From contig JBKAGP010000001.1 of NCBI GenBank assembly GCA_046290465.1, positions 448,001-512,000 on the forward strand: 64,000 nucleotides of DNA. Reading direction: 5' to 3'. Shown here piece by piece: positions 45,968-51,706 of this stretch. The first letter of the stretch is position 1; every line of letters begins with the position of its first letter. The DNA is from Planctomycetota bacterium. GTDB taxonomy: Bacteria > Planctomycetota > UBA1135 > UBA2386. Below the pieces are notes generated by a model. The model saw only the letters and a list, made by a program, of their open reading frames with translations, searched no databases and was not told where the DNA came from. Position numbers and translations under genes: made by a program.

Positions 45968-46049
45968 AGCAAGCAACGTGCCGCGACCGAGGCGGCGGTC
46001 GAGCGACCGGAATCCGGGCGCCGCAGGCCGCCGTGCGCCCGGAATCCGG
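45968..46049 (-). promoter_or_regulatory. Sigma54 (-24/-12) promoter CGGCACG-TTGC-TTGCT with two upstream CCGG-N3-CCGG boxes
   Basis: Promoter 45968-45983; boxes 46007-46017 and 46039-46049. Confidence 0.75.
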
Positions 46050-46064
46050 ACACGCCTGCTCTGC

Positions 46065-47744
46065 TCAGCGGGAGACCTGCTGTTCGGGCGCGACCCAGCC
46101 CCACTCGGGCCGGATCCCGAACCGCCCCGGCTGACAGCCCCGCACGCGGCGGTGCATCAGCACGGCGGCGCGCGGATGTGCGACCAGCGCAGCCGGCGCG
46201 AGCTCTGCGGAGCGGGCATGCGCCTGCCGCCAGAGTTCGTTCCGCAGCTCCGGGTCGGGCTGCCGACGCGCCTGCTCGAGCAACGCGTCCAGGGCCGGAT
46301 CGGCGAAGCCACCGTGGTTGTTGGTGCCCTGCGAGTGCAGGAAGCGATGCGGATCCTGCGACGGCAGGAACGACTCGAGCACCAACAGGCCGTCCCAGGC
46401 ACCGGCCCGCAGTTCGGCCAGCAGCGGCGTCAGCGCGCGTTCGCGGACCTCGAGCTGCACGCCCGCGGTGCGCGCCGCGTCGCGGACGAGGTCGACGATC
46501 GCCTCGAGCACCTCGGTGCCGGACAGCGCGAGCAGGCGCAGGCGCAGCGGCGTGCCTGCGCCTGCGTCGAAGCCCGCTCGCCGCAGCTCCGCGCGGGTCG
46601 CGGCGGGATCGAAGGTGCTGGTCGGGCACCCCTGCAGCGCATCGGCGTACGGCTTGGCGTGGCCGCGCGCCGGCTCGAGGTCGCCAAAGCGCTGCTGCAG
46701 CGCCTGGTGGTCGACCAGGCCGGCGAGGGCCCGGCGCACCTCCGGGCGGTCGAACGGCGCGTGCCGTGCGTTCCAGACGATCCGGTAGACGCCGAGCTGC
46801 GGGTAGTCGTAGCGGTGGCGCACGTAGTCGCGGCGGACCTGCTGGTGGGCGGTGAGCAGCGCGTCGAGGTCCTGGCCCGAGTACCAGTCCAGTTCGCCGC
46901 GCAGCAGCGCGTTGCGGGCCGCGGCCTGGTCGCGGAACCGCACCCGCATCGCCGCGAAGTTCCAGCTGCCGGGGCGCACCTGTCGGTGCCAGCTCTGCTC
47001 GTGCCGCACCATCGTGACCCGCTGGCGCGCGCGCCACAGCGAGGTCCCGTCGGCATACATCGAGTACGGCCCGGTGCCGGGACCGGTCTCGCGCCGCAGC
47101 TGGGCGACCAGGTCGGCGAACCGACGGGAGGCGACCGGCGGCATCGACTCGCCCGCGTCGAGTCGTTCGCGGATGCGTTCGAGCAGCCAGGCGCGGCACG
47201 GCACCAGCCAGTTCTCCCCGACCACGCTGGCCGCGTCGAAGTGGTCGCCGGCGAACCGCACCCGCAGCGTGCCGTCGACGACCTCGGCGCTGCGCACGTG
47301 CTGCATCGCGTCGCCGACGAAGCCGAGTTCGAGATGGCCGCCGCGGTGCAGTTCGAACGGCAGCAGCACGTCGTCGGCGGTCAGGGGCGAGCCGTCGCAA
47401 AAGCGCACGCCCGCACGCAGCGGGTAGTCGCAGCCGTGGCCGTCGTCGTGCAGGCGGTAGCTGGTGGCGAGGGCGCCGCGCAGGCTGCCGTCGCGACCGT
47501 CGCGGTCGAGCAAGGTGTCGTGCGTGACCCTGAGGATCAGGTTGCGGGCGGCTGGGCCGCGGCAGGTCAGCGGGTGCACGTCGGCCGGCTCCTCGGCGGC
47601 ACTGGTGTAGACATGGCCCTGCGGTCGCCCGCCGAGCGTGCGCGGGTGGGGGGCGAGGGGCAGGCCGTCGGCGGGGCCGCGCAGCAGCGCGAAGCCGACC
47701 ACCAGCAGCGCCAGTGCCAGCAGGCAGACGAGCACGAACCGCAT
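46065..47744 (-). CDS. ABC transporter substrate-binding protein, family 5 (peptide/nickel type), orphan
   Basis: LRAGVRFCDGSPLTADDV, PGTGPY, PFDRPEVRRALA; N-terminal hydrophobic anchor. Confidence 0.85.
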   Translation of the reverse strand: MRFVLVCLLALALLVVGFALLRGPADGLPLAPHPRTLGGRPQGHVYTSAAEEPADVHPLTCRGPAARNLILRVTHDTLLDRDGRDGSLRGALATSYRLHDDGHGCDYPLRAGVRFCDGSPLTADDVLLPFELHRGGHLELGFVGDAMQHVRSAEVVDGTLRVRFAGDHFDAASVVGENWLVPCRAWLLERIRERLDAGESMPPVASRRFADLVAQLRRETGPGTGPYSMYADGTSLWRARQRVTMVRHEQSWHRQVRPGSWNFAAMRVRFRDQAAARNALLRGELDWYSGQDLDALLTAHQQVRRDYVRHRYDYPQLGVYRIVWNARHAPFDRPEVRRALAGLVDHQALQQRFGDLEPARGHAKPYADALQGCPTSTFDPAATRAELRRAGFDAGAGTPLRLRLLALSGTEVLEAIVDLVRDAARTAGVQLEVRERALTPLLAELRAGAWDGLLVLESFLPSQDPHRFLHSQGTNNHGGFADPALDALLEQARRQPDPELRNELWRQAHARSAELAPAALVAHPRAAVLMHRRVRGCQPGRFGIRPEWGWVAPEQQVSR

Positions 47745-47820
47745 CGACGCCACTATGCAGCAGCCCGGTCGTCGGCGACACCTGTTCGGTGCCACGTCCG
47801 CCCGGTAGCCTCGGCCGGCG

Positions 47821-50800: not shown

Positions 50801-51588
50801 CGTTCGTGGCTGAGAACTGCTCGGCGCTGCCCGCCGAGCTGATGGAGCGGGAGCTGTTCGGGCACGTCGAGGGCGCGTTCACCGGCGCCGATCGCGACCG
50901 CCCGGGACTGCTTGAGCTGGCCAACGGCGGCACGCTGTTCCTCGACGAGGTCGGCGACATGCCGTCGGCGCTGCAGGTCAAGCTGCTGCGCGCGCTGCAG
51001 GAGCGTGAGATCCGCCGCGTCGGCGGCTCGCAGACGATCGCGCTGGACCTGCGCATGGTCGCCGCGACCCACAAGGACCTGCGCGCGATGGTGCGCGACG
51101 GCAGCTTCCGCGAGGACCTGTTCTTCCGCCTGGCCGCGGTCGAGCTGCACGTGCCGGCGCTGCGCGAACGGGAAGGCGATGTCGAGTTGCTCGCCGACCA
51201 CTTCGTCGAACGCCACGCGCGCGAACGCGGCGTGCGGCTGCGGTTGCTCGAGTCGGCGCGGGCCGAGCTGCGGCAGTACGGCTGGCCGGGCAACGTGCGG
51301 GAGCTCGAGCACGTGATCGCGCGGGCCGCCCTGTTGTGCGATGGCGAAGAGGTTGCCAAGCTGCGGCTGCCGACCGGCCAAGGGCTGGCCGCAGGCGCCG
51401 GCGACGTCGCCGGGGCGGCGGCCGGCGAGACGTCGGAGCCGGTGTGCACGCTGCAGGAGGCCGAGCGCCGGGCGATCGAGGCCGCGATGCGGCACTGCGG
51501 CGGCGACAAGGCCAAGGCTGCGCGGACGCTGGGCATCAGCCGCACGGCGCTCTACGACAAGCTGAAGCGGCACGGCCTGTTCGCCTGA
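47821..51588 (+). CDS. Ser/Thr kinase-TPR-GAF-sigma54 enhancer-binding protein (AAA+, Fis HTH)
   Basis: Kinase HLDLKPAN/DFG/APE; TPR-like helices; GAF (VRSAICVPF..GAIYVE); GETGTGKE, GAFTGA, FLDEVG, WPGNVREL; AARTLGISRTALYDKL. Confidence 0.93.
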   Translation: MTIRDLDLLRAVVPDGRLLGVRDGGQGRSLHGVDRGGDEFLLKVLGHGDVADEVRSAASLRHPRIPATRRVGVLDDGRAFVLRDYVRGSVPDALSREPDLLVDQVLQVLEVLGFVHLRGVLHLDLKPANLVVDERDRVHLLDFGLAVRAGESARGGTPFFAAPEVLFGVPPDARADLFSLGAMVVHALLDDRGRVAEAVRRFPGEGLLAACGLPLARVPKQLQRFLVGVLPRDRARRFPDVASAIEALVGGGSGRPSAALLRPDPVELFAGEIERALEVTGDVQVVGAGADERRAVALHLAVHGVATRAVVERADELRLLRDGADDRTFELRLPDLDAERLSRHLADVVGLAGEAARDAAVALLAHDRSVDGVARAFDRLVAAGQVVPAGSRWSWPDARARRLRAAAAATTDGEPLAAAVARAARTGRHAQAEALLRSGDGLENERARIAYVEGLLDGGEPARALPWAAGRPLLRARALLDAGRFRLAAAELAALGEPTDEAHRRVAAQLALAAGDTARARRLLEELVGSRSGRVLLAVVLEQDGDFTRSRQLADACLAELEEDEQPFLAASLHTLVGHLDRRGGDLDAARAAFERAAALSQRIGHLRHLGSCELNLGVIAKDQGDLVSATMGLREARTLCDYVGDEARAAIATSNLGIVALLRDDAVGAREALQAGRQQLERLGDVASARLASVMLARAELRSGDRAAAERLLADLGEPDSERLRSECLALRAEMAQQDGIEHDGAMHDRADVADAQGALFRTFLAVNRKLAQARDLDEAMRGLLDAAVTLTAGRRGYLLVQREDGMRREFDSGSSEQAAQAFSRSLANRAIQEQRALTGADVLADEELQAMQSVRNLRVRSAICVPFDSAAGVRGAIYVEHAGRAGVFREADSRALEVLADQAAIAVDRMLREESMQKELSDSRRELAVVRRGSRRSAVRLLGESGVMEDLRAQVDKLAQLELAVLVTGETGTGKELVARSLHERGVRSQGPFVAENCSALPAELMERELFGHVEGAFTGADRDRPGLLELANGGTLFLDEVGDMPSALQVKLLRALQEREIRRVGGSQTIALDLRMVAATHKDLRAMVRDGSFREDLFFRLAAVELHVPALREREGDVELLADHFVERHARERGVRLRLLESARAELRQYGWPGNVRELEHVIARAALLCDGEEVAKLRLPTGQGLAAGAGDVAGAAAGETSEPVCTLQEAERRAIEAAMRHCGGDKAKAARTLGISRTALYDKLKRHGLFA

Positions 51589-51622
51589 GGCGCGGGTCGG
51601 CCCGACGGGACCCCGGTTGGAG

Positions 51623-51706
51623 CGTCCGGGTTCCGGGCACGGCCGCGGCCTCTGTGTGCGGATCCCGGACGTTCCATGCCGTCTTTGAGGTTGGCACGCT
51701 CGTTGC
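51623..51706 (+). promoter_or_regulatory. Sigma54 promoter TGGCACG-CTCG-TTGC with two upstream CCGG-N3-CCGG-type boxes
   Basis: Promoter 51692-51706; boxes 51626-51636 and 51658-51668; AAGGAG SD before ATG 51754. Confidence 0.82.

Follow-up and report, generated by a model that had tools for sequence, protein, structure and literature searches.

Activators of sigma54-dependent transcription are taught as long-range regulators, which act by DNA looping and have a lower limit of about 70 bp. How, then, would such an activator work from a site that ends only 20 nt short of the promoter? This question is raised by a 64,000-nt stretch of a Planctomycetota genome (assembly GCA_046290465.1, contig JBKAGP010000001.1, positions 448,001 to 512,000; hereafter the window), in which two sigma54 promoters, each preceded by a pair of dyad-symmetric boxes, lie beside a gene for a sigma54 activator fused to a protein kinase. 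A site centred at about -55 is kept in its family over dozens of genomes, and its strict helical phasing makes it a natural test of the need for looping. On balance we favour the reading that the kinase-fused activator opens a cell-surface sigma54 regulon at close range, where DNA looping would be slight or absent. Several of its elements are shown by sequence comparison. The promoters and their dyads are there, the gap is fixed and helically phased, the layout co-occurs with the activator, and the AAA+, GAFTGA, helix-turn-helix (HTH) and kinase motifs are intact; the list of targets comes from the same comparison. The conserved close-range enhancer layout with a kinase-fused activator is what is new here, sigma54 cell-surface regulons being already a known kind.

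Two promoters and their paired dyads

Two -24/-12 elements were recognized in the window by sequence match. Promoter B, on the plus strand, has TGGCACG-N4-TTGC at 51692..51706 and a predicted start at about 51718. Promoter A, on the minus strand, has CGGCACG-N4-TTGC(T) at 45969/8..45983; its predicted start, 45957, is 5 nt before the ATG at 45952, so that its transcript would be near-leaderless. Both agree with YGGCACR-N4-TTGC and with GG-N10-GC. Upstream of each are two boxes, the 11-bp cores of which begin at 51626 and 51658 (+) and at 46039 and 46007. The two cores are exactly 32 bp apart and the near one is exactly 24 nt from the -24 GG in both promoters, just as a first-pass annotation, made from the letters alone, had placed them. 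The same annotation called them CCGG-N3-CCGG-type boxes. Such cores are present, but promoter B has GCGG-ATC-CCGG as its near box, and the full element is really a 17-bp dyad, YGT-N11-ACR (consensus YGTSCGSAWTSCGGACR), the near copy of which stops 20 nt short of the Y in YGGCAC. Counted with the C of the -12 element as -12, the near box runs from -63 to -47. In promoter B the near dyad (51655..51671, +; 18.1 bits) is thus centred at about -55, and the far dyad (51623..51639, +; 16.3 bits), 32 bp upstream, at about -87. Promoter A has the same 20-nt gap and 32-bp spacing, with a near dyad of 11.2 bits (46004..46020, -) and a far dyad of 19.2 bits (46036..46052, -), the top single box of the genome.

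The bare core is not significant: CCGG-N3-CCGG alone occurs 1816 times on both strands of the source genome (G000; 6.59 Mb, 70% GC; coordinates outside the window are given on contig C1). The composite pattern of two boxes and a promoter, in contrast, has exactly two matches in this genome, both in the window. Two other double CCGG-N3-CCGG matches, at C1:6523488 and 4601547, were rejected, as they are in apparent coding sequence and have no promoter. For scoring, a box matrix was trained on 23 boxes taken from the loci of relatives only, the relatives being Planctomycetota genome bins, and the sigma54 filter matrix included both window promoters. The window composites score 34.4 and 30.5 bits, ranking first and second among 1077 promoter-like sites of the genome, with the next at 15.3 bits. 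Two simulated 6.6-Mb single strands (third-order Markov) reach a maximum of 11.1 bits each, so that the composite stands well above chance.

The first matrix scan required GC at -12 and a spacing of 21-23 or 31-33 bp, and so missed a third site in the source genome, at C1:4843247-4843343. Its boxes, at 4843247 and 4843290, are 43 bp apart, with a gap of 20 nt to TGGCACG-N4-TTGG, and it precedes a gene for a secreted FG-GAP protein. The orthologue of this target in another genome (G011; 81% identical) has a gap of 20, a spacing of 42 and the same -12 GG. The earlier idea of a self-contained regulon has therefore to be given up: this third conserved promoter is 4.3 Mb from the window pair, and the family regulon is dispersed. 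A weak fourth candidate, C1:4632711 (11.1 bits, gap 20), precedes a Cu/Zn superoxide dismutase-like gene. An unbiased dyad search upstream of strong promoters of this genome used an AT filter that excluded even the known boxes.

In a classical enhancer the nearest site is some 70 bp or more upstream, and an IHF site or AT-rich bend lies between site and promoter. Here the near centre is at -55, and the far site alone lies beyond that limit. No match to the IHF consensus (WATCAA-N4-TTR) was found in any of the three promoters of the source genome, and their 20-nt spacers are 50-80% GC.

The kinase-fused activator and the spread of the layout

The gene at 47821..51588 (+) encodes a protein of 1255 aa, which by its domains and motif conservation belongs to the sigma54 enhancer-binding proteins (bEBPs) and is predicted to activate transcription and to bind the dyads. 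According to Pfam, a Hanks-type Pkinase domain is followed by a degenerate middle region, TPR (the TPR_12 match is below cut-off), GAF, the Sigma54_activat AAA+ domain (PF00158, E 2e-66), the AAA lid and a C-terminal Fis-type HTH_8 (PF02954), which matches ZraR, Fis and NtrC chains. The kinase residues are K43, E53, H122-L-D-L-K-P-x-N129 and D142FG; GAFTGA is at about 1018-1023, and Walker A/B and the HTH are intact. Over 16 aligned orthologues the kinase Lys, the alphaC Glu, HLDLKPxN and DFG are invariant, the kinase being of the non-RD type (HLD). GAFTGA is kept in 14 of them, with GSFTGA and GTFTGA in the remaining two; the recognition helix, ISRTALY[DE]KL, hardly varies. The linker that joins lid to HTH differs among the orthologues and abounds in Ala, Gly and Pro. 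The Pfam scan found no receiver domain, and the protein scores below the NCBIfam cut-off for all 25 named bEBP families shown of 38 (for example, NorR 337 vs 476 and PrsR 321 vs 503). Neither a fused transmembrane sensor nor a partner kinase conserved beside the family orthologues was found. The source genome has 26 bEBP-like open reading frames (ORFs), only this one having a kinase motif in frame, and two rpoN genes above cut-off (C1:1164519 and C1:6172362; L001 and L002). In contigs of four sequencing runs the locus is covered, in overlapping pieces, by near-identical strains only; in two of these the predicted GTG start at 47821 is TTG, still a start codon.

Where does this fusion come from? 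Residues 1-760 have 79 homologues, and the near-full-length ones are named Planctomycetota where they are named. The kinase-TPR-GAF-AAA-HTH order is shared by longer homologues (1550-1680 aa) from other families, one of which has a weak AAA_16 match just under cut-off, and many orthologues of the activator carry a precomputed match to PF17874 (TPR_MalT). These features recall STAND/MalT-type kinase-NTPase-TPR proteins, and the longer homologues suggest a STAND-like ancestor. Unlike such proteins, the 1255-aa form has no AAA_16 match in Pfam, and its aligned middle region lacks a P-loop, so any STAND-type NTPase in it would be degenerate.

The layout follows the activator from genome to genome. 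The pattern box-N20/21-YGGCACR-N4-TTG is present in 11 of 41 genomes, namely 11 of the 16 with the activator and none of the 25 without it, several of the 11 having supplied training sites for the matrix. In 49 further family genomes, covered by both searches, it was found in 24 of 34 with the activator vs 2 of 15 without (Fisher P = 4e-4, a value that overstates the association because kin are not independent). Of these two exceptions, one (G302) holds a truncated activator gene (L116), and the other genome is 79% complete. The composite precedes the activator gene itself at two loci (L105 and L116), and at four (L004-L007) it drives a lipoprotein gene that abuts the activator gene. In L116 (G302:C643), back-to-back divergent composite promoters drive the activator gene and a gene of the 193-aa protein family described below. 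Together with the intact AAA+ domain and HTH, the co-occurrence indicates that the dyads are very probably the binding sites of the 47821-51588 activator, as the first-pass annotation had inferred.

The distance from the near box to the promoter is sharply preferred. When any gap between 8 and 38 nt is allowed, it is exactly 20 in 23 of 51 matches in activator-bearing genomes and in none of 22 in other genomes; without training and seed sites the peak still holds 14 of 41. Out of 64 family sites examined, 55 scored at least 10 bits (strong sites) and nine were dropped. A far box of at least 6 bits is present in 41 of the 55, spaced 21-23 bp from the near box in 19 and 31-33 bp in 18; hence the identical architecture first noted is true of the window pair and its 32 bp but not of the family, where the spacing is not fixed. 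A search that used the far box only (gap 33-63; 32 matches, 31 of them scored, including both window sites and some training sites) gave far gaps clustering at 40-43 (11 promoters) and 51-53 (18). A near box was present in 27 of these 31 promoters, at a gap of 19-21 (25) or 30 (2), and in both promoters of one genome (G017) it has moved by one helical turn, to gap 30. Since the far positions fall at helical-turn multiples and the G017 shift is one turn, all boxes lie on one face of the helix, with the near position constrained. In 22 of the 55 strong sites the -12 C has given way to another base, a comparison biased by the method of promoter finding.

Proposed activation from -55 and its alternatives

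How could these sites work? We favour the following outline. Two activator dimers would load on same-face dyads, centred at about -55 and at -76/-77, -87 or -98. The loaded dimers would then assemble into oligomers, and the variable linker that joins lid to HTH would let them reach sigma54 at -12. The helix face would be set by the fixed near site, which may also help to hold the sigma54-polymerase where the -12 element is weak. With less support, the cytoplasmic kinase with its TPR and GAF regions might gate the AAA+ activity within a single polypeptide. The genes switched on would remodel the cell surface through exported proteins, lipoproteins and beta-propellers and, in relatives, a glycosyltransferase/ABC operon. 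A bolder proposal, which we hold to be slightly short of probable, is that activation is loop-free and position-fixed: the kinase-gated AAA+ protein at -55 would itself contact and recruit the sigma54-polymerase, much as class I activators are placed at sigma70 promoters, and distance rather than sequence would separate it from a paralogue that uses a near-identical dyad at gap 84.

Published distances show how far this departs from other systems. A baseline was taken from the site and promoter tables of the supplements of PMC4641369 for Desulfovibrio vulgaris Hildenborough, which give predicted sites; non-coding RNA promoters were left out. Six of its 57 protein-gene promoters have downstream sites only; for the other 51 the median gap to the nearest upstream site is 84 nt, with the site at 31 nt or less in two, which bears out the initial view that the window dyads are unusually promoter-proximal. 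The PrsR spacer of the PEP-CTERM system averages 62.8 nt (standard deviation 10.6, minimum 32; PMC1569441), in Clostridiales most bEBP sites are 100-250 bp away (PMC6615313), and a distance of more than 50 bp is given for bEBP sites in PMC12754779. Single short gaps exist among predictions, but neither a family-wide fixed short gap nor a kinase-fused bEBP system was found in the literature searched, which covered few subscription papers. A term search of the covered portions of PMC11032199, PMC1262709, PMC3162934 and PMC12316311 likewise gave no kinase-bEBP fusion.

Several observations weigh against activation at close range by this protein. For NtrC to activate, its site has to be 70 bp or more from the transcription start (review, PMC7408454), and the far boxes, at -76 to -98, satisfy this rule and so could by themselves be the activating sites. 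Activation by looping is described in the RPi structure paper (PMC5505868), which draws the enhancer and the DNA-binding domains as illustration only. Short gaps occur elsewhere too: gaps of 4 and 20 are predicted for two sites in D. vulgaris (PMC4641369). Ten of the 34 further activator-bearing genomes have no match to the strict pattern, and no scoring promoter was found at the orthologue loci L003, L009, L013, L015 and L016. Of 226 genomes outside the family, 14 match, a number similar to that of the reversed-pattern control (18); the longer homologues do not follow the gap-20 rule, and beside two of them, in other families, boxes are at gaps 40 and 63. One of the matches outside the family (L091) is a full copy, upstream of a homologue of the gene for the 193-aa protein. 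Finally, a DUF5666-like lipoprotein that is a target in relatives has a copy in the source genome (5.23 Mb) without a box.

Could the near dyad be a brake instead? In this alternative, which we consider unlikely, the far dyad would be the activating enhancer, and a resting dimer on the -55 dyad would occlude or limit polymerase. The low-affinity "governor" sites of glnAp2 offer a parallel, and the near box lies where upstream contacts of polymerase could be hindered. The far centres obey the NtrC rule (PMC7408454), and PexR is a precedent for a bEBP that acts as both repressor and activator (PMC12754779). A brake sits poorly, however, with the 14 of 55 strong sites that lack a far box of at least 6 bits, and with a near box that matches the far one in strength instead of being of low affinity. 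The whole-turn shift to gap 30 in both G017 promoters is likewise easier to reconcile with a face-specific contact than with simple occlusion.

The remaining alternatives concern who binds the dyads, if anyone. Another bEBP-like protein or a non-bEBP co-activator might bind them, with the kinase-fused gene merely travelling with the targets; this we judge improbable. There is no shortage of candidates among the 26 bEBP-like ORFs of the source genome, one being a paralogous GAF-AAA-HTH activator (C1:6199592-6201301; L144). Its near-identical dyad is at gap 84 behind an AT-rich spacer, as it is in two other genomes (G001 and G010), and scores 14.5-21.3 bits on the same matrix. Yet G001 and G010, which carry this paralogue (83% and 77% identity), have neither the kinase-fused gene nor a gap-20 composite. 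The composite follows the kinase-fused gene, precedes it at L105 and L116, and drives the abutting lipoprotein gene at L004-L007. The paralogue is a natural control as well as a possible source of cross-talk. It is barely credible that the boxes are GC-rich palindromes without a regulatory function, which came to lie beside two promoters by chance or local duplication: CCGG-N3-CCGG is indeed frequent at 70% GC, yet the spacers of promoters A and B differ while their boxes match, and the out-of-sample ranking, the simulations, the gap peak and the helical phasing all speak against it.

The proposed activation by the kinase-fused protein from the near dyad may next be set beside known systems. 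NtrC at Escherichia coli glnAp2 shares the -24/-12 promoter, the paired dyads and an AAA+ activator with a Fis-type HTH. Sites 1 and 2 of NtrC have the same 32-bp spacing as the window boxes. NtrC receives its input through a receiver domain, whereas the planctomycete activator would receive it through the fused Ser/Thr kinase-TPR-GAF part, and the NtrC sites are far upstream (at least 70 bp; PMC7408454) whereas the near site of the window is fixed at about -55. The PrsR/PrsK/PrsT regulon of PEP-CTERM proteins (Haft et al., 2006; PMC1569441) is similar in having a 17-nt activator motif with a sigma54 motif before genes of exported proteins, a link to surface polysaccharide and discovery by phylogenetic profile; a lineage-wide C-terminal domain shared by many planctomycete targets adds to the likeness. 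It differs in its longer spacer (mean 62.8 nt vs 19-21 here) and in using a separate histidine kinase and TPR protein in place of one polypeptide. The planctomycete system does not belong to it, as no target matches a PEP-CTERM family, the activator scores below the PrsR model and a receiver domain is missing.

For DVU0653 of Desulfovibrio (Kazakov et al., 2015; PMC4641369), an 18-bp box with TGTCCG...CGGACA ends, repeated at 30-33 bp, has been predicted. This box is similar to the planctomycete dyad, which has the same ends; it precedes a non-coding RNA, and candidate small RNAs are also among the planctomycete targets. Desulfovibrio regulons of this kind differ in their longer gaps, and no kinase fusion appears in the text portions covered. 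The shape YGT-N11-ACR also resembles the TGT-N10-12-ACA sites of FhlA, NifA and Clostridiales bEBPs (Nie et al., 2019; PMC6615313), which likewise control small regulons beside the bEBP gene, though mostly from sites 100-250 bp away. The compact promoter-enhancer unit of about 110 bp might allow the full-length activator, its sites and the sigma54-polymerase to be captured together.

Other sigma54 promoters of the source genome, at C1:2826829, 3711789, 4643911 and 4632711, have a different, TGCA-N5-TGCA-like repeat, one copy of which, at C1:2826829, is only 9 nt before the promoter; they probably make up the regulon of another bEBP.

Target genes and candidate small RNAs

The window targets are likely to be mostly exported proteins, and the family regulon a dispersed cell-surface one. 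The analysis maps such a regulon and its one-component, kinase-fused activator in planctomycetes of a lineage known here from genome bins alone. Promoter B precedes the gene for a 193-aa exported protein (51754..52335, +), without a Pfam match, which belongs to the commonest target family. It falls in the Atlas cluster "putative DUF5666 domain-containing protein" (score 0.97), which may be its own cluster, and likely consists of a small OB/DUF5666-like N-terminal part and a C-terminal domain of about 105 aa. The latter, which has no counterpart among Pfam models, is the C-terminal part of at least 39 ORFs in the source genome (three rounds of hidden Markov model search, not converged), including those at 51754-52335 and 41220-42776 of the window, and is a candidate for a lineage-wide export or anchoring domain. 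The second gene of promoter B, after a 49-nt gap, encodes a 551-aa exported protein with a predicted TolB/DPP-IV-N-like beta-propeller (52385..54040, +); its Atlas structure gives a TM score of about 0.5 to PD40/Gmad1 propellers, with a model pLDDT of 0.57. The propeller gene is the constant partner of the activator, being present in 16 of 16 family genomes with it and in none of nine without. It also adjoins the longer homologues in other families, where an alginate-export/DUF5666 porin joins in some.

Promoter A precedes the gene for a 266-aa lipoprotein with a right-handed beta-helix (45152..45952, -; PF13229). It is likely a lineage-specific recruit, with no tblastn match in loci L003-L019. 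Downstream are a radical SAM-TPR gene and a GT9 glycosyltransferase gene (42786..45031, -; Pfam), separated from it by 120 nt without a terminator-like site on the minus strand; both are possibly co-transcribed from promoter A. The two promoters were first described as flanking the activator. Both are indeed beside it, but between promoter A and the activator gene is a gene for a family-5 solute-binding protein (46065..47744, -; Pfam), divergent from the activator gene and its neighbour in seven fetched loci; no box-promoter of its own was found.

When the 55 strong family sites are sorted with BLAST and visual inspection, the outcome agrees with the initial expectation of mostly exported products. 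Downstream are 14 genes of the 193-aa family, nine of the 551-aa propeller, ten of lipoproteins (mostly DUF5666-like), eight of other secreted proteins, six of a GT28-like glycosyltransferase, two of the activator, three likely non-coding RNAs and three others. In relatives, the DUF5666-like lipoprotein gene under a composite promoter is directly upstream of the activator gene. Where the locus is long enough (L075 and L069), the GT28-like gene heads an operon with two more conserved GT1-type genes and an ABC exporter. After the FG-GAP gene of the third promoter (L034; C1:4843247-4844870) come a gene for a membrane 4Fe-4S/FAD oxidoreductase-like protein and ORFs with CxxCH motifs (cytochrome c-like), and a homologue of the oxidoreductase-like gene is directly under a composite at another locus (L114). 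At L143 (G017:C54) a composite at gap 22 precedes an ORF with a sigma70-family-like N-terminus, as judged by eye, which might point to a cascade.

The three candidate small RNAs, for which no Rfam match was found, extend the regulon beyond proteins. At L030:960-1488 (-) and L124, a composite promoter is upstream of a conserved predicted transcript of about 500 nt with a terminator. In a 124-codon ORF present there the mismatches are even over the codon positions (40/38/43; 18 synonymous and 61 non-synonymous), and the fold z is -4.9. The transcript, which has no full-length match in the source genome, is likely non-coding. At L129:2085-2237 (-) and L127, the candidate sigma54-driven RNA is shorter, about 150 nt, and no comparable element was found in the source genome. 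Its fold z is -7.3, a large share of which comes from a strong terminal hairpin, and with its repeated GAGUCC-like motifs it resembles a protein-sponge RNA.

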